Source of the DNA: a virus
IMG/VR virus record: IMGVR_UViG_3300032235_000776
Coordinates: 1-64,000 of that record
Reading direction: 5' to 3' (one strand)
Length of the DNA: 64,000 bases
Positions 3,737 through 13,400 of this stretch are shown here, in pieces (positions within the stretch are counted from its first letter, which is position 1; the number at the start of each line of letters is the position of its first letter). Under the pieces are notes generated by a model that saw nothing but the letters and a program-made list of their open reading frames with translations, made no database searches and was not told the origin of the DNA. A program made the translations under genes and the position numbers.

Positions 3737-3767
3737 TTTGGAAATCTAAAATAAAGTGTTATCTTTG
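3737..3767 (+). promoter_or_regulatory. promoter of tRNA operon 1
   Basis: TTTG(3737-40)-N19-TATCTTTG(3760-67), Bacteroidetes primary-sigma consensus. Confidence 0.85.
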
Positions 3768-3775
3768 TATTGTAA

Positions 3776-3850
3776 ATGACAATGAATTTCAATATAGCAA
3801 TTAATAAGGTGTGGGGTGATAGACTCATATCTAGGGGCTATATTATGTAA
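3776..3850 (+). CDS. attenuator leader peptide 1 (MTMNFNIAINKVWGDRLISRGYIM)
   Basis: Near-leaderless ORF; codons 6-16 match array-1 tRNAs; overlaps antiterminator 3829-3839. Confidence 0.85.
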   Translation: MTMNFNIAINKVWGDRLISRGYIM

Positions 3851-3868
3851 TTTACAAGATATTACAAG

Positions 3869-3899
3869 AAGCCTCTAGATAAACTCTAGGGGCTTTTTT
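3869..3899 (+). terminator. attenuator terminator 1
   Basis: AAGCCTCTAGA/TCTAGGGGCTT hairpin plus T-tract; 5' arm can instead pair with ATCTAGGGGCT (3829-3839). Confidence 0.9.
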
Positions 3900-3905
3900 G
3901 TTTTG

Positions 3906-3976
3906 GGGGATAGACACAGGCGAAGTACTTTACATTTGCAATGTAATAGTTTAGGTTTCGATTACCTATATCTCCA
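3906..3976 (+). tRNA. tRNA-Ala(UGC), atypical D arm
   Basis: GGGGATA/TATCTCC-A with G3:U70; anticodon arm TTACA-TTTGCAA-TGTAA. Confidence 0.8.
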
Positions 3977-4030
3977 CAAATACTTTTAAATAATTATTGT
4001 ATTTAAAAGCAAATTTTGTATATTTGTAAT

Positions 4031-4480
4031 ATGAAAAAATGTACAATATGCAAAATTGAAAAGGATGAAGTTAATTTTAATAAGAATAAAACTAGGAAGG
4101 ATGGTATATCAAATGTATGTAAAATTTGCAGCAGAGAAAAATCTTCTACCTACTACAATTCTAATTTAGAAAAACATAGAGAAGAAGTAACTAAAAGAAA
4201 TAACGTACAAAGAGGTTTATTAAAAGATTTTATCAAATCAACGTTAATTACCTCAAAATGTAAAGATTGTGGAAATAAAGATTGGAGAGTTTTAGAATTC
4301 GATCATCTTCCAAATTTTAAAAAAAGAAATGATATTTCATATATGGTTAAAGGAGGGTATAGTTTAGAAAGTATAAAGGATGAAATATCTAAATGTGAAG
4401 TGGTGTGTAGAAATTGTCATTGTATAAGAACAATAGAAAGAAGTGAAAAAGATTATAGAAAAGACTCTTCCGTAGCTTAG
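4031..4480 (+). CDS. HNH-type (homing) endonuclease inserted in tRNA array
   Basis: CxxC pairs, LEFDH, KCEVVCRNCH; own TATATTTG at 4019-4026; stop lies within tRNA-Lys. Confidence 0.8.
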   Translation: MKKCTICKIEKDEVNFNKNKTRKDGISNVCKICSREKSSTYYNSNLEKHREEVTKRNNVQRGLLKDFIKSTLITSKCKDCGNKDWRVLEFDHLPNFKKRNDISYMVKGGYSLESIKDEISKCEVVCRNCHCIRTIERSEKDYRKDSSVA

Positions 4481-4928: not shown

Positions 4929-5045
4929 CAAATGCTCCAGACGTGGAGAACGTAGACAGAAAAGGCCTCTTAATAATGCACACTTTCATCCTAATCGTAG
5001 GTAGGCACAGTTAGTAGATCTGTGGTAATCTTAAAATCTACACTT

Positions 5046-5364: not shown

Positions 5365-5400
5365 CTTTTATTATTCAAATATATGTAGTACCTTTGTAGT

Positions 5401-5676
5401 ATGAAATTAGGATTGGATGATGTATATATAAAGTCAGAAGATTTAGGATTAACAAGTGATATTATTAATCAGTTACATGTACTTGATATAATATCAAATC
5501 CCGAAGGTGAGTTTCTTTATTATCAAGGAGATAATAAATTTTACTATATGTCTTTTAAAAAAAGTGGATACTTAAAAAATCCAGATGGTCCCTGGCATTC
5601 ATTATCCAGTTATAAAAAAATAGATACTAGAACTCCAATAGAAAAAATCAAGCAATGGTTATCTTCTATCTCCTAA
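5401..5676 (+). CDS. hypothetical protein
   Basis: Leaderless ORF after TACCTTTG (5389-5396). Confidence 0.7.
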   Translation: MKLGLDDVYIKSEDLGLTSDIINQLHVLDIISNPEGEFLYYQGDNKFYYMSFKKSGYLKNPDGPWHSLSSYKKIDTRTPIEKIKQWLSSIS

Positions 5677-6056: not shown

Positions 6057-6079
6057 TTAAAAATAAAGTATTATATTTG
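6048..6079 (+). promoter_or_regulatory. promoter of tRNA operon 2
   Basis: TTTG(6048-51)-N20-TATATTTG(6072-79). Confidence 0.85.
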
Positions 6080-6086
6080 TAGTATA

Positions 6087-6140
6087 ATGATGAAGCAATA
6101 TTCATATAGTTCACTCTATTTACCTGATTATTCGGGCTAG
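6087..6140 (+). CDS. attenuator leader peptide 2 (MMKQYSYSSLYLPDYSG)
   Basis: Codons 5-12 are only Tyr/Ser/Leu, matching array 2; TAG stop. Confidence 0.88.
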   Translation: MMKQYSYSSLYLPDYSG

Positions 6141-6165
6141 GAGAGAACTGTATGTAAAAATATAG

Positions 6166-6195
6166 AAACCCTGGCCTAATAAGTCAGGGTTTTTT
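6166..6195 (+). terminator. attenuator terminator 2
   Basis: ACCCTGGC/GTCAGGGT plus T-tract; can instead pair with leader 6123-6141. Confidence 0.9.
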
Positions 6196-6199
6196 ATTT

Positions 6200-6455: not shown

Positions 6456-6538
6456 AGAAAGTAAACTGAACTGGGTTTAGGCTCCCCTGCTAAGGGATGC
6501 GTAGAGATATCTATTTGGTTCGATTCCAATTCTTTCTG
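6456..6538 (+). tRNA. tRNA-Ser(GCU)
   Basis: AGAAAG/CTTTCT-G; TCCC-CTGCTAA-GGGA; variable arm. Confidence 0.85.
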
Positions 6539-6544
6539 CTATAA

Positions 6545-6644: not shown

Positions 6645-6675
6645 TTTGACAAATAAATAAAAAGTCATATATTTG
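6645..6675 (+). promoter_or_regulatory. promoter of suppressor-tRNA/Pth unit
   Basis: TTTG(6645-48)-N19-TATATTTG(6668-75). Confidence 0.85.
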
Positions 6676-6686
6676 TAGTGATATAA

Positions 6687-6759
6687 GGACTAATGCTAGT
6701 GGTTAGCAACTTCTCTCTAAAAGAAGCGTCTAAGGGTTCGATTCCCTTTTAGTCCTCCA
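6687..6759 (+). tRNA. amber suppressor tRNA(CUA)
   Basis: GGACTAA/TTAGTCC-T-CCA; CTTCT-CTCTAAA-AGAAG; T arm AAGGG-TTCGATT-CCCTT. Confidence 0.92.
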
Positions 6760-7079
6760 TGGCTTAGATTAAAAAACTCGTAACCGTAACCCGTAGAGAT
6801 TTAACTATCTCTCAACAAGCTGTACAATCTACACATGCAGCTTTAGATTTTGTATTTCAAAATCCCATAACAGCTTTGTTATGGCATCAATCAAATTACC
6901 TTATTCAATTAACCGTAGCTGACGAGGAGGAGTTACTGAATTTAAAAGTCAAACTCTCCGATGTCTCTGTAAAGCATACTGCTTTCAGAGAACCAGATAT
7001 GGACAATCAATTAACTGCTATATGTATAGCACCTGGTAAATTAACAAAGGAAATAACAAAAAAATTTAAATTATTATGA
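6759..7079 (+). CDS. Pth2-like peptidyl-tRNA hydrolase with in-frame TAG at codon 3
   Basis: ATG GCT TAG ATT AAA AAA CTC..., in frame with listed 6876-7079; KLVTVTRRDL..QQAVQSTHAA..FREPD..QLTAICIAP motifs. Confidence 0.82.
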
Positions 7080-7405
7080 TCGCAACTCGCATTATATCCG
7101 CAGAAAATGAAATTTATAATGGTAGACTCATTATAAAATTTGACAGACATAGAATAGTGTTACCTAATAACAACAGTAAAAGAATGTATTTAGGTAAAAG
7201 AAGATACAGAGAATTAATGAATTCAGCAGTAAGTAAAGATATACCTTTAAGATATACTGATGAATATCTATATCATTTACCAAAGAAACTAAAAGAAAGT
7301 ATAGTATTCGATGAACCTGTTAAAGTACAACCTGTTAAAACTCAAGTAGTTACAGAAGAACCTATAAAACAAAAAAGATTTTTTCGATCTTTATTTGGTT
7401 TGTAA
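7076..7405 (+). CDS. hypothetical protein
   Basis: ATGA overlap with Pth2-like gene. Confidence 0.7.
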   Translation: MIATRIISAENEIYNGRLIIKFDRHRIVLPNNNSKRMYLGKRRYRELMNSAVSKDIPLRYTDEYLYHLPKKLKESIVFDEPVKVQPVKTQVVTEEPIKQKRFFRSLFGL

Positions 7406-7425
7406 AAATAAAAGTTGTATATTTG
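7394..7425 (+). promoter_or_regulatory. promoter of tRNA operon 3
   Basis: TTTG(7394-97)-N20-TATATTTG(7418-25). Confidence 0.85.
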
Positions 7426-7429
7426 TAGT

Positions 7430-7504
7430 ATGAAAGTAACATTTACACAGCGTCCAGAGCAACATACCCCATGTTTTACATGGAGTGCTAGGGTCATTGT
7501 GTAA
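7430..7504 (+). CDS. attenuator leader peptide 3 (MKVTFTQRPEQHTPCFTWSARVIV)
   Basis: Codons 4-17 use only, and all of, the 8 amino acids of array 3. Confidence 0.9.
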   Translation: MKVTFTQRPEQHTPCFTWSARVIV

Positions 7505-7532
7505 ATGCATATTCAATATGTCAAAGACTTTG

Positions 7533-7559
7533 AACCCTGGCTAAACACCAGGGTTTTTT
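7533..7559 (+). terminator. attenuator terminator 3
   Basis: AACCCTGG/CCAGGGTT plus T-tract; 5' arm can instead pair with GCTAGGGT (7487-7494). Confidence 0.9.
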
Positions 7560-7566
7560 GTTTTAT

Positions 7567-7639
7567 GCTCGGTTAGTTCACATGGTTAAAACAGTGGGTT
7601 TTCACCCCACAGTAACGAGTTCGATTCTCGTACCGAGTA
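7567..7639 (+). tRNA. tRNA-Glu(UUC)
   Basis: GCTCGGT/ACCGAGT-A; GTGGG-TTTTCAC-CCCAC. Confidence 0.9.
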
Positions 7640-7646
7640 CAAAATT

Positions 7647-7734
7647 CGGGGAGTAGGTCTGTAGTCTGGTAGCAGTCCTGCCTTGGAAGCAGGTGGAGTA
7701 AAATCCCTCGTTGGTTCGAATCCAACCTTCCCGA
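7647..7734 (+). tRNA. tRNA-Pro(UGG) with long variable arm
   Basis: CGGGGAG/CTTCCCG-A; CCTGC-CTTGGAA-GCAGG. Confidence 0.88.
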
Positions 7735-7740
7735 CAATAA

Positions 7741-7812
7741 GTTAGGTTGACTGAATGGTAAGGTCACGGTCTGCAAAACCGCTGTTCGTAGGTTCGATTC
7801 CTACACCTAACT
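7741..7812 (+). tRNA. tRNA-Cys(GCA)
   Basis: GTTAGGT/ACCTAAC-T (U73); loop CTGCAAA. Confidence 0.92.
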
Positions 7813-7816
7813 CTAT

Positions 7817-7891
7817 GGTACATGAGCTAGTCTGGTGATTCAGCGCATGCCTGAAGAGCATGAGAATAAGGTTCGATTCCTTGATGTACCA
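7817..7891 (+). tRNA. tRNA-Phe(GAA)
   Basis: GGTACAT/ATGTACC-A; CATGC-CTGAAGA-GCATG. Confidence 0.9.
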
Positions 7892-7898
7892 CAAATAA

Positions 7899-7972
7899 GC
7901 CTCCAAAGCATAATTGGCTTGATGCACCCGGTTTGTACCCGGGATAACTGGGTTCGACTCCTAGTGGAGGCT
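7899..7972 (+). tRNA. tRNA-Thr(UGU)
   Basis: GCCTCCA/TGGAGGC; CCCGG-TTTGTAC-CCGGG. Confidence 0.92.
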
Positions 7973-7973
7973 C

Positions 7974-8045
7974 TAAGATATAGTTCAGTGAATAGAACAT
8001 CTCCCTACGAAGGAGAAGACATAGGTTTGAATCCTATTATCTTAT
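7974..8045 (+). tRNA. tRNA-Arg(ACG)
   Basis: TAAGATA/TATCTTA; TCTCC-CTACGAA-GGAGA; encoded CCA 8046-48. Confidence 0.9.
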
Positions 8046-8047
8046 CC

Positions 8048-8120
8048 ACTCCGGTCTTCTAATCGGCAGGAAATCTAACTTTGAATTAGATAATAGTAGG
8101 TTCGAATCCTCTCTGGAGTA
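8048..8120 (+). tRNA. tRNA-Gln(UUG)
   Basis: ACTCCGG/CTGGAGT-A; TCTAA-CTTTGAA-TTAGA. Confidence 0.88.
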
Positions 8121-8126
8121 CAATAT

Positions 8127-8198
8127 GGTGTTTGAAGCATTAAGGTGATGCGCTTTCTTGTGACGAAAGAGAATACGGCTCAATACCGTACTAACACC
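8127..8198 (+). tRNA. tRNA-His(GUG)
   Basis: G-1:C73; CTTTC-TTGTGAC-GAAAG. Confidence 0.88.
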
Positions 8199-8262
8199 CT
8201 AATCCATATTCCAATCTATCATAAGTAGGATTATTCCTACTATAATACCAACAATAAATCCT

Positions 8263-9995: not shown

Positions 9996-10499
9996 TTACT
10001 TTTCCAGTAATTCTATTGCATCAATGTTCTCAACTTCTAATTTTAAATTGTCATCTGCCCATTCTTTAAATGGATTCGGCAACATACTGTACCACTTAGA
10101 TAGTCCAAGTACCCAAGCAAGGTACTCATAGCAATAGAATTTCTCTGCTGCCTTTCTTTCATCGGTATAACCATAGTACTTTCCAGTAACTGTGTTTATT
10201 AATTGATAGAAAAGCAAACTTGCAAAGTCATACTTAGTATTACCTACTTTTGATAGGGCTTTTGCTCTATATGACTTAGGTACTTTGTATACTGTTACCT
10301 TTTGTTCTTTAATCCAATCTTTAAAAGGGATTAATATAACTCCATGCATGTCCGCTTCCACTATAAATTGATTTTTATCAATTGTAATAAGGAATGCTGC
10401 GTGGTTGTAATAAGTTTTTGCAAACTTACGAATTGCCCAAGAGATAAATGTCAAGGGTCTTTTCCAATTTAATGGTGTGTGTACTATTAGTGCTTTCAT
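9996..10499 (-). CDS. permuted papain-like NlpC/P60 (YiiX/YebB-like) enzyme
   Basis: N-terminal YNHAA His, KYDF, C-terminal FYCYEY Cys. Confidence 0.75.
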   Translation of the reverse strand: MKALIVHTPLNWKRPLTFISWAIRKFAKTYYNHAAFLITIDKNQFIVEADMHGVILIPFKDWIKEQKVTVYKVPKSYRAKALSKVGNTKYDFASLLFYQLINTVTGKYYGYTDERKAAEKFYCYEYLAWVLGLSKWYSMLPNPFKEWADDNLKLEVENIDAIELLEK

Positions 10500-13400
10500 T
10501 AGTAATCTGTTTCTATATATACTTTTGCTACTTCTAAATTATCTGCTGCAGCTATGGCTCCATTTCTTACTTCTGCTTTAAATGCCATACCTGTATTTGC
10601 AGCTGGTAAATCTGTAGTGTAACTTGTCTCAAGAACTGTAACTCCAGAATGTATGTTTAAAATTCTTACAAATAATTCTGAACCACCTGGGGCCATATAC
10701 ATTATAAGGTCATAACCATGTGTAGTATTGGACCTTAAAGCATTTGCTCCAAGGTCTACTTTTGTTGCAGTTCCTGTACCGTCATTTCTCATAAAGAACC
10801 AGTTGCCGGCACTGTTATCTGCAGCATCATAACCCATTCCACACATATTAGTTAGTGCTGAAGGTTCCCCAGCTAAGGCACCAGTAGATGCACATAGTCC
10901 TACAAACTTTTGACCACCATTTAAGTTTATGTTAGCACCAAGTTGAGCTCTGAAAAAGAATCCTCCAAATCCTGTAGCAGATCCTCTAAACCATTGAGTA
11001 TAAGCTGTTCTCATACCAGTAGCGTTACCAGCCGTAGTAGATGTTTGGAATCTTTTTCTCCACGTAGCTAACCAAGGACTTGAAGATGCAATTGTTTGTT
11101 GAACAGACATAGTTGCAGCTGTAGTAAGAGTTCCTCCTATTGCTGTTGGAGCACTAGTACCTGAAGCAGGAGCTACTAAGAATACTGCATTACCATGAAG
11201 ACCTACTTGAAGAATTGTATCTACACCACTTGGACCTATAATTTTAGGTAAGTGTCTTCCACCAACTATTTTAGAGTATAGTAGTAATCCACCTGTTGGA
11301 GCAGCCGGGTCAGTAGTAGAAACAAGTTTAAGATTATCTCCAAATATCTCAACATTTGCAGCTCCTGATAATCCTCCTACTCCATTATTATATTGAATTT
11401 CTCCTGTTGTTCCTCCTGGAGTTACTGAAGGACCTGTATATCCTGTATACCCAGTTGCTCCAATAGAACCACTTGGACCAGTGTAGCCTGTATATCCGGT
11501 ATATCCAGTAAAATTACCTGGTCCAGTATATCCAGTATACCCAGTAGGACCTATATTTCCTTGTGGACCTGTAAATCCAGTGAATCCAGTTGGCCCTTGT
11601 GGCCCAGTATAACCAGTAAAACCAGTTGCTCCAATTACACCTTGAGGTCCGGTATAACCGGTAAACCCAGTATACCCAGTTGGACCAGTAACATTTGAAT
11701 CTGCTCCGGTATATCCAGTGTAACCTGTGTAACCTGTTGCACCAATTGGACCATCAGGTCCTGTAAAACCTGTGAAACCGATAGGGCCTATTGGTCCGGT
11801 AAAGCCGGTATATCCTGTATATCCTGTGAAATTACCTGGTCCCGTATAACCTGTAGGTCCCGTATAACCTGTAAAATTTCCTGGACCAGTATATCCAGTG
11901 TAACCCGTTGCTCCTTGTGGACCATTAGGTCCAGTGTAACCCGTAGGACCAGTTGGACTAATAACACTAACAGAAGTTACAACAAACGAATAGAATTGAG
12001 TACCTTCAGTGTAGAAGGTAACTGGGTGAGATCCGCCTCCTATGTTTTTAACATAGATTTTAACAATCATTTTGTCTGTTGTTAGAATGGTTGTTGTAGG
12101 TAGTGTAATATCAGTTAGTACTAAAACTGGTGTAACAGCATCGATCCATGTGATTAATACTGAACTAGAAGTTAATATAGTTCCGTAGCCAACCCCTGCT
12201 GAGTTTGCTAACTCTATAGTAACATATGCTTCAAAATTATGACCTGGAGCACCCTTTAATAAATGTAAGTGGAATTGTTGAACACCACCAGGAATTACTG
12301 CAAAACCAAGTTCAGGTGTTAAAAATTCTTGCATTAACCTACTTGTACCCGAACCAATTCCAGTTTGTAACACTGTTTGTTGAACAGCTCCACTAGGTGT
12401 TATTGCTAATACTTTATATGGAGCTACATCAGAGTTTTGTGATTGATTAAAATAATATGTTGCCCCTAATGAAAGTCCATTAGGCCCAGTGTATCCAGTT
12501 GGACCTGTAACATTTGAGGCAGGTCCCGTATAACCCGTATAACCAGTAAAACCTGTTGCCCCATTACTTCCATTTACCCCTGTATATCCAGTATAGCCTG
12601 TTGCTCCTGTTGCTCCTGCACCAGTATAACCTGTATACCCCGTAGGACCAGTTACTGTTGATGCAGCTCCCTGTGGACCTGTATACCCAGTAAAACCTGT
12701 GGGACCTTGACTACCTTGAGGTCCAGTAAAACCAGTTGGACCAGTAAAACCTATAGGACCAGTAAATCCTGTAAATCCTGTTGCACCTCTTGGACCTGTA
12801 AATCCTGTTGGACCAGTTGGTCCAATACTACCATTTGGACCTGTATATCCGGTAGGACCTGTAACTGTTGATGGTAAACCTGTTGCTCCCGTATACCCAG
12901 TATAGCCAGTGTATCCAGTGTATCCAGTACTTCCTTGATTTCCTGTATAACCCGTAAATCCAGTTGGTCCTGTATAACCTGTAAAGTTACCAGGACCTGT
13001 ATACCCTGTATAACCTGTGTGACCAGTATAACCGGTGTAACCAGTAAAATTACCCGGTCCGGTATAACCAGTGGGACCAGTAGGACCATCAATTCCATCA
13101 TAACCAGTATATCCTGTTGGTCCTGTAGGTCCAATAGGTCCACCTGAAGGACCAGTGTATCCAGTAAAACCGGTGTATCCAGTTGATCCAGTATATCCAG
13201 TATGTCCTGTATATCCAGTCATACCAGTATAACCTGTAGGACCGGTAGCACCAATACCAGATATCTTATAATTACCTGAAGCATCGTGTACTCCCCATTC
13301 CTTACCATCAAACATAGCCATTTCACCAGGAACTAAAATAGTTTGAAAAATTACAAATGAAACTCCATTTACATTTTTTCTAAAAATAATAGTACATGGT

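Follow-up and report, generated by a model that had tools for sequence, protein, structure and literature searches.

A probable ribosome-mediated attenuator in front of a phage tRNA array, with a leader reading frame that lists the tRNAs encoded behind it

The window analysed here is a stretch of 64,000 nt that forms part of a 92-kb IMG/VR virus record. Three proteins of the phage, namely the terminase, the portal and the major head protein, match PHROG families. The terminase shares 24-28% identity with its counterparts in crAss-like phages of Bacteroides, Flavobacterium and Cellulophaga, and the phage is therefore a distant crAss-like one with a Bacteroidota host. All the tRNA genes of the window lie on the + strand between 3.9 and 8.2 kb and are organised as three arrays and a lone amber-suppressor tRNA. 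ARAGORN run with a relaxed threshold adds Ala(UGC) at 3905-3977, Ser(GCU) at 6460-6539 and His(GUG) at 8128-8199, and with these relaxed-threshold tRNAs the three arrays together represent all 20 amino acids. The same layout is found three times in this phage, namely a -7 box, a short ORF, a U-tailed hairpin and a tRNA array. A search of GenBank phage DNA with the whole tRNA region returned generic tRNA matches only and did not reveal a close relative, an exact 22-mer of the unusual tRNA-Pro had no match, and a near-identical genome that could serve for a substitution analysis of the third leader was not found.

The third unit ends with array 3 (7567-8199, + strand; ARAGORN and Rfam), which encodes Glu(UUC), Pro(UGG), Cys(GCA), Phe(GAA), Thr(UGU), Arg(ACG), Gln(UUG) and His(GUG) in this order, eight tRNAs without any protein gene among them. 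With default settings, ARAGORN reports this array from tRNA-Glu(ttc) (7567-7640) through tRNA-Gln(ttg), which ends at 8121. The last gene, tRNA-His(gtg) (8128-8199), escaped both Rfam and ARAGORN with default settings and was called only at the relaxed ARAGORN threshold; visual inspection shows G-1:C73 and a normal anticodon arm, together with a T loop that is atypical. Upstream of the array lies a mini-gene of 24 codons, leader ORF 3 (7430-7504, + strand; MKVTFTQRPEQHTPCFTWSARVIV plus stop, also written TFTQRPEQHTPCFT). It begins with ATG (7430), AAA and GTA, followed at 7439-7480 by 14 codons (codons 4-17) that we call the checklist: ACA TTT ACA CAG CGT CCA GAG CAA CAT ACC CCA TGT TTT ACA. 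The frame then continues with TGG AGT GCT AGG GTC ATT GTG TAA, the stop codon being at 7502-7504. The checklist uses all eight tRNAs of array 3; standard wobble fits 13 of its 14 codons and the remaining one, ACC, requires four-way reading by U34 of tRNA-Thr(UGU). Four amino acids occur in it only once, Arg (7451), Glu (7457), His (7463) and Cys (7472).

Leader 3 is preceded by a promoter, read from the sequence, at 7394-7425 (+ strand), which is located between the upstream gene (ending at 7405) and the leader ORF and consists of the -7 box TATATTTG (7418-7425) with a candidate -33 element TTTG (7394-7397). The consensus of the Bacteroidota -7 element is TAnnTTTG, and we take the box of leader 3 to belong to it. 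The string TATATTTGTAGTATG occurs with 0-2 mismatches at 4019, 5389, 6072 (leader 2) and 7418 (leader 3); the site at 4019 precedes the start of a 149-aa HNH endonuclease (PHROG match) and that at 5389 the start of a 91-aa ORF. The ATG of leader 3 stands 4 nt past the -7 box, the same spacing as for the HNH gene (4031) and the ORF at 5401, and since the string is likewise placed at these two real genes, leader 3 has the normal promoter-to-start arrangement of the phage. Such spacing presumably implies a leaderless mRNA, and the transcript of leader 3 is probably leaderless or near-leaderless. Translation of the leader is inferred, as there are no expression or ribosome-profiling data.

Between the leader and the array, a terminator scan located an intrinsic terminator at 7532-7564 (+ strand), whose stem GAACCCTGG/CCAGGGTTT (9 pairs, 7532-7556) closes a 7-nt loop and is followed by the tail TTTTTTGTTTT. 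It begins 29 nt after the leader stop codon, and the gap from its tail to tRNA-Glu (7567) is only 3-7 nt. Because this gap leaves no room for a promoter, array 3 can be transcribed solely through the terminator.

The agreement between leader 3 and array 3 is observed and lies far beyond chance. The initial annotation had listed array 3 as Glu, Pro, Cys, Phe, Thr, Arg(ACG), Gln and His and had described fourteen consecutive codons restricted to these eight amino acids with all eight present; both statements hold on the sequence and the ARAGORN calls, His being recovered at the relaxed threshold only. Its crude estimate of the chance probability, 3e-6, was too cautious. The array-3 codon set makes up 28.4% (0.284) of the codon usage of the phage, with which a run of at least 14 in 23 codons has an analytic probability of about 2e-7, and a run of 14 was reached by none of 300,000 simulated ORFs. 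When the 64-kb window is read in all six frames (128,000 codons), the 14 codons of leader 3 form the longest run of the eight array-3 amino acids and the next longest is 8. The match is also specific, as 14 of the 23 codons of leader 3 are read by its own array vs 8 and 1 by the other two, and for leaders 1, 2 and 3 the own-array runs are 11, 8 and 14, the runs on other arrays being 1-5.

The two sister units are built alike. Unit 1 (3760-3900, + strand) consists of a promoter, the leader MTMNFNIAINKVWGDRLISRGYIM (3776-3850) and a terminator (3866-3898), and its array contains Ala, an HNH gene and then Lys, Arg(UCU), Trp, Ile, Met, Gly, Val, Met, Asn and Asp. Its run of 11 codons covers 10 of the 11 decoding classes of array 1, and 18 of the 23 codons of leader 1 are read by its own array (3 and 2 by the others). 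In addition, TCTAGGGGCT at 3828-3837 within leader 1 is a repeat of the 3' arm of the terminator. Unit 2 (6072-6196, + strand) consists of a promoter, the leader MMKQYSYSSLYLPDYSG (6087-6140, stop codon TAG) and a terminator, and precedes Leu(UAG), Leu(UAA), Ser(UGA), Ser(GCU) and Tyr; its leader contains YSYSSLYL, encoded by TAT TCA TAT AGT TCA CTC TAT TTA, which uses 5/5 of the array-2 tRNAs.

Three alternative structures are predicted for the RNA of unit 3. The first is the terminator itself. The second is formed by an antiterminator strand, GCTAGGGT (equivalently GCUAGGGU), at 7487-7494 (+ strand), which pairs with ACCCTGGC (7534-7541) in the 5' arm of the terminator. The third, an anti-antiterminator spanning 7440-7507 (+ strand), appears in both the minimum-energy and the centroid folds and pairs 7440-7450 with 7497-7507, thereby enclosing the antiterminator strand. 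In the absence of a ribosome, the leader 3 RNA folds with a z-score of -4.76 relative to shuffled sequences and the terminator forms, while the pairing of 7440-7450 with 7497-7507 encloses an inner hairpin and part of GCUAGGGU. Ribosomes were modelled by masking a 28-nt footprint at each A-site position before folding; this is thermodynamic modelling, not measurement, and it assumes both the size of the footprint and that no pairing takes place across the ribosome. In this footprint-masked folding, the probability of the terminator, P(terminator), is 0.88-0.95 when the RNA is free of ribosomes or a ribosome has reached the final codons or the stop codon, and 0.92-0.95 if only the ribosome-free RNA and a ribosome at the stop codon are considered; the antiterminator strand (7487-7494) lies under the footprint of the ribosome at 7502-7504. 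An A site at 7454-7472 lowers it to 0.01-0.28, as the terminator 5' arm is then paired with GCUAGGGU and adjacent bases. Stalls at the first checklist codons or at the last two have little effect in equilibrium folding, with P(terminator) of 0.5-0.85 at the first ones. A co-transcriptional snapshot, that is, the RNA ending before the terminator 3' arm emerges, gives the terminator 5' arm as already paired at 0.87 for A sites up to 7475, 0.54 at 7478 and 0.18 at 7481; this pairing being lost past 7475-7481, the effective window ends with the checklist. The Arg, Glu, His and Cys codons that are listed only once fall where the predicted suppression of the terminator is strongest. Leaders 1 and 2 respond like leader 3 in footprint-masked folding.

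Considering both the codon content and the predicted folds, we propose that leader 3 is a transcription attenuator of the trp/his/ilv type, mediated by the ribosome, which gates eight tRNA genes and exerts negative feedback on decoding capacity. We regard this reading as probable. It rests on the observed codon match, on structural elements in the observed geometry and on covariation among relatives (below); that the leader is translated, that ribosomes stall on it and that read-through is conditional is inferred. The initial annotation had already pointed to a leader-peptide attenuator, and its reading gains support, without experiment, from the promoter and start, the absence of another entry point for transcription, the three structures, the ribosome-position switch, the match at codon level and the covariation. 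The two elements it had placed, the hairpin CCATGT-TTT-ACATGG (7469-7483, + strand) and the antiterminator GCTAGGGT (7487-7494), are found at these positions, the former as part of the minimum-energy fold and the latter with the capacity to pair with ACCCTGGC at 7534-7541. A role of the hairpin as a pause site is only a suggestion, and the hairpin may do no more than contribute to sequestering the antiterminator.

Briefly, the proposed switch would operate as follows. Transcription would start at the ATG at 7430 or immediately upstream of it, and the leaderless RNA would then be loaded with a ribosome. If decoding is prompt, the ribosome would reach the 3' part or the stop codon of the ORF and cover GCUAGGGU, so that the terminator (7532-7556) would form and the array would remain off. 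An untranslated leader would also leave the array off, since the pairing of 7440-7450 with 7497-7507 would lock the antiterminator. Should any of the eight aminoacyl-tRNAs become scarce, the ribosome would be expected to stall within 7439-7475 and to leave GCUAGGGU free to pair with the emerging 5' arm of the terminator, and RNA polymerase would read through; the eight tRNAs would then be made and the stall relieved. The feedback would be separate for each of the three tRNA sets of the phage. Sensitivity to a mild shortage may be low because the tRNAs for Arg, Glu, His and Cys are each represented by a single codon, and the switch seems, by inference, better suited to a severe depletion, such as host tRNA cleavage, than to a mild one. 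As the host tRNAs read the same codons, the sensor would be blind to the difference between phage and host tRNAs, and it cannot separate a low level of tRNA from a low level of charging.

One alternative, which we consider improbable, is that the element senses the general supply of amino acids, or the charging of tRNAs, and not how many tRNA molecules are present; the phage would then make more tRNA in response to starvation. Indeed, a stalled ribosome reports a missing aminoacyl-tRNA regardless of the cause, and the architecture is that of amino-acid attenuators; extra tRNA, however, is no cure for amino-acid starvation. Moreover, the leader codons are split by the tRNA genes down to synonymous boxes (CGT/AGA, Ser and Leu). 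The Arg codons of the phage are AGA in 82% and CGT in 9% of cases, and leader 3 has CGT with Arg-ACG behind it, leader 1 having AGA with Arg-UCU behind it; leader 2 employs both Ser boxes and both Leu boxes, corresponding to the two Ser and two Leu tRNAs of array 2. An amino-acid sensor would have no reason to respect synonymous boxes, which counts against this alternative, and from the partition by isoacceptor box we therefore argue that tRNA supply is what matters.

Units of the same design were found in two distant crAss-like relatives, G001 and L218, and in a Caulobacter phage. The contig G001, a 112-kb IMG/VR sequence whose terminase is 27% identical, contains three leader/array units: leader A (MIVDNRINAGGENR) before Val, Arg(UCU), Asn, Met, Gly, Glu, Asp, Ile(UAU), Ile(GAU) and Ala; leader B (SYYSLSLLLSSY) before Leu, Leu, Ser, Ser and Tyr; and leader C (QTinTRFFWHQPTPQ) before Pro, Thr, Phe, Gln(CUG), Gln(UUG), His, Arg(ACG) and Trp. 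Their own-array runs are 14, 12 and 11 (A, B and C) vs 0-4 on other arrays. Unit C is the counterpart of unit 3, and the differences between the two arrays are mirrored in the leaders. Glu and Cys are present in array 3 and in leader 3 and absent from array C and from leader C, and the Glu tRNA of G001 is placed in array A, whose leader contains GAA; Trp is found in array C and leader C, whereas in the phage of the window it belongs to array 1 and to leader 1, and leader 3 has its TGG just past the effective window and outside the checklist. For leaders A and B, antitermination is predicted by the co-transcriptional snapshot only, equilibrium folding alone having given no such prediction. In 6/6 leaders (this phage and G001), the antiterminator ceases to be pre-paired no more than about 2 codons away from where the own-codon run ends.

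Two further examples were also identified. A metagenome contig (L218) with a 52% identical Pth2-like gene combines the promoter TATCTTTG, MKRILSYSSYLSLSLQDRLGLLWT, a terminator, an HNH gene, Leu, Ser, Ser and Tyr tRNAs and a suppressor tRNA, and its leader contains LSYSSYLSLSL ahead of Leu, Ser, Ser and Tyr. Caulobacter phage RB23 (GenBank MZ574433) has a leader, MSKSYRQFVRQIQFVRVNRAGRSRMDDGGTRV (RQFVRQIQFVRVNR), before Val, Ile, Val, Gln, Asn, Arg and Phe, and a second one, gp135 (MTRIHTTLTTAKPASTGALTLASWPASSKPLLRHSAVLA), annotated as a hypothetical protein, before Pro, Thr, Lys, three Leu, His, Ala, three Ser and Trp. The codon match is accordingly present in eight leaders of three phages (this phage, G001 and RB23) and in a ninth in L218. 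Leader sequences are not conserved among these relatives; the amino-acid sets alone are kept and change with the array. From the matching units in G001, L218 and RB23 we conclude that the design spans unrelated phage lineages and hosts. A further contig, G002 (= L024), has a 49-aa leader containing all 20 amino acids and a 52-aa ORF between the terminator and the first tRNA, and is suggestive only. The terminator pattern scan yielded mostly unrelated terminators, the relevant ones being L105 (= G001) and L024 (= G002) only. IMG/VR locus hunts based on PhoH, on an alignment of a PD-(D/E)XK-like nuclease and on a terminase alignment gave no further relatives with tRNA arrays; this nuclease is widespread in unrelated phages. 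L221, in which a tRNA-Pro follows a Pth2-like gene, is without a leader, and the crAss-like phage cr273_1, with two tRNAs and a tmRNA only, was uninformative.

The remaining alternatives can be weighed against these observations. The terminator could merely end the upstream transcript or insulate the array, with basal read-through or processing and with an ORF that has no regulatory role. Intrinsic terminators are common between phage genes and expression data are absent for this phage, so the idea is not without basis; nevertheless, we judge it very unlikely, given a dedicated promoter between the end of the upstream gene (7405) and the ORF, a codon match with a probability of about 2e-7 that recurs in the eight leaders and in L218, and an antiterminator geometry that matches the end of the checklist in all six leaders folded. 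That the ORF might encode a functional small protein whose composition is unrelated to tRNAs is harder still to sustain: phages do encode many micro-proteins, and RB23 gp135 is annotated as a hypothetical one, but only the amino-acid sets are conserved among relatives and they shift with the array. Finally, a coincidental match between leader and array, for which nothing speaks except the small size of the ORF, has both the statistics and the covariation among relatives against it and can be regarded as practically refuted.

The attenuator that we favour has clear counterparts in the enterobacterial amino-acid operons. The classical leaders, the multivalent ilvGMEDA (Ile/Leu/Val) and thr (Thr/Ile) ones as well as trp, his, leu and phe, have a short promoter-proximal ORF, regulatory codons and mutually exclusive anti-antiterminator, antiterminator and terminator hairpins, in which stalling leads to read-through. 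Leader 3 shares with them the promoter-proximal ORF, the enrichment in regulatory codons, the three exclusive structures and a stop codon placed in such a way that a terminating ribosome masks the antiterminator; the 1:2 / 2:3 / 3:4 logic of trp-type attenuators matches the folding predicted by our models. In contrast, the phage leaders would gate tRNAs instead of biosynthetic enzymes and list up to 8-11 amino acids, mostly once or twice, whereas the classical ones contain runs of one to three. The mRNA of the phage element is furthermore probably leaderless, and the element has a Bacteroidota-type promoter, is phage-borne and present in triplicate, and its product would directly relieve the stall. 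To our knowledge, the leader-peptide attenuators described so far all regulate amino-acid biosynthesis or related protein genes. Rfam leader families gave nothing above 20 bits on leader 3, and leaders 1 and 2 had only matches below cut-off (Thr_leader, 22-24 bits for a cut-off of 55, and the trpB motif, 32 bits).

T-box riboswitches likewise couple tRNA status to the choice between terminator and antiterminator upstream of translation-related genes, but they bind uncharged tRNA through a specifier loop without ribosomes, whereas the specifiers of the phage would be translated codons; Rfam returned no T-box match at E <=10. The nearest published biology that we found is the trn operon of Anabaena sp. 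PCC 7120, a silent array of 26 tRNAs that is induced by translational stress and is controlled through promoter direct repeats bound by the repressor TrcR (PMC8421152, PMC10272220). Both systems keep an accessory tRNA array off, to be induced under impaired translation; that of Anabaena, however, does not sense particular codons and resides on the chromosome or a plasmid instead of in a phage, and the words leader, attenuator and terminator are absent from the 2021 paper on it. No published account of leader-peptide control of tRNA genes was found by full-text search, which left the subscription literature largely uncovered, so that absence of such an account is unproven.

Ideas on why phages carry tRNA genes, and on when they express them, include compensation of codon usage, replacement of degraded host tRNAs and escape from tRNA-cleaving defences. 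It is conceivable, though we hold it only as a tentative and rather doubtful extension, that the checklists are inducible counter-defence sensors and, taken with the Caulobacter case, reflect a general rule of phage tRNA control that spans lineages. An anticodon nuclease, another tRNA-depleting defence or the phage's own host shut-off would remove particular host tRNAs; ribosomes would then stall on the matching checklist, and only the array with the replacement tRNAs would be switched on.

For annotation, the checklists support doubtful tRNA calls that were missed by the default finders, here His(GUG), Ser(GCU) and Ala(UGC), and a checklist may serve as a practical aid for annotating phage tRNA transcription units. 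The switch, about 135 nt long, lends itself to in vitro assays with defined tRNA pools and has counterparts in a cultured phage-host pair, the phiCbK-like phages of Caulobacter. If the proposal is true, phage tRNA genes would be regulated by demand, set by set, and leader-peptide attenuation would be extended from amino-acid operons to tRNA genes, with a product that acts on its own sensor.

Each of three window tRNAs with atypical bodies, His(GUG) at 8128-8199, Ser(GCU) at 6460-6539 and Ala(UGC) at 3905-3977, was predicted by the content of the leaders, the short ORFs that precede a terminator and a tRNA array. All three are missed by ARAGORN with default settings. Rfam detects the Ala(UGC) tRNA (33.6 bits), gives only a sub-threshold tRNA-Sec hit on Ser(GCU) (29.3 bits) and does not find His(GUG). 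In the array behind leader 1, the Gly and Val tRNAs are separated by a gap of 116 nt (window 4930-5045), in which no tRNA was called and for which Rfam returned only a weak, sub-threshold sRNA hit; it may hold a degenerate tRNA or some other small RNA. The tRNA arrays of the window phage and its relatives also contain HNH homing-endonuclease genes (window 4031-4480; compared loci L124:3614-4015 and 10988-11431, L217, and L218, the contig with a 52%-identical Pth2-like gene), which stand between the leader, or the first tRNA, and the remaining array.

The terminator stems of the leaders have a common CCCTGG/CCAGGG core in phages whose terminases are only about 27% identical. Stems with this core were located at window 7532-7556 (leader 3) and 6167-6191, at L124:3252-3288 and 10312-10340, and at 6246-6279 of L024 (G002, IMGVR_UViG_3300043397_000026). 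Leader 2 stops at a TAG codon, and its frame, if the neighbouring suppressor decodes TAG, extends to a TAA within the terminator loop (window 6138-6180); under that condition, suppression would bring the ribosome into the terminator. The equivalent CTAGG of leaders 1 and 3 is out of frame.

No leader precedes this amber-suppressor tRNA(CUA) (window 6687-6759), which has a promoter of its own. The tRNA is adjoined by a Pth2-like (peptidyl-tRNA-hydrolase-like) ORF, whose codon 3 is TAG; the whole arrangement lies in window 6668-7079. Of 23 metagenome loci (L217-L238) that encode homologues of the Pth2-like protein, roughly 11 have a suppressor tRNA within about 50-700 nt, with the anticodon CUA in most and UUA in one (L232).

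Two further candidate leaders were found in the compared loci. At L024:6071-6280, a 49-aa ORF begins 7 nt downstream of a sigma-70-type promoter (TTGACA-17-TACAAT). Next comes a terminator that is almost the same as the leader 3 terminator, loop included, and beyond it lie a 52-aa ORF and about 23 tRNAs. All 20 amino acids are present in the 49-aa ORF, which may be a checklist of the whole set, that is, a leader whose codons match the tRNAs behind it. The second candidate, a 52-aa ORF (MTQQKRISDGRLQS...) with a terminator upstream of a tRNA array, occurs at L016:9983-10213 and L038:10275-10505. The array comprises Asp, Glu, His, Lys, Met, Gln, Arg and Ser. Counted from the residue behind the initial Met, 10 of the first 13 in the ORF belong to this set, and the arrangement may represent a weaker example of the same leader-array design in another phage.
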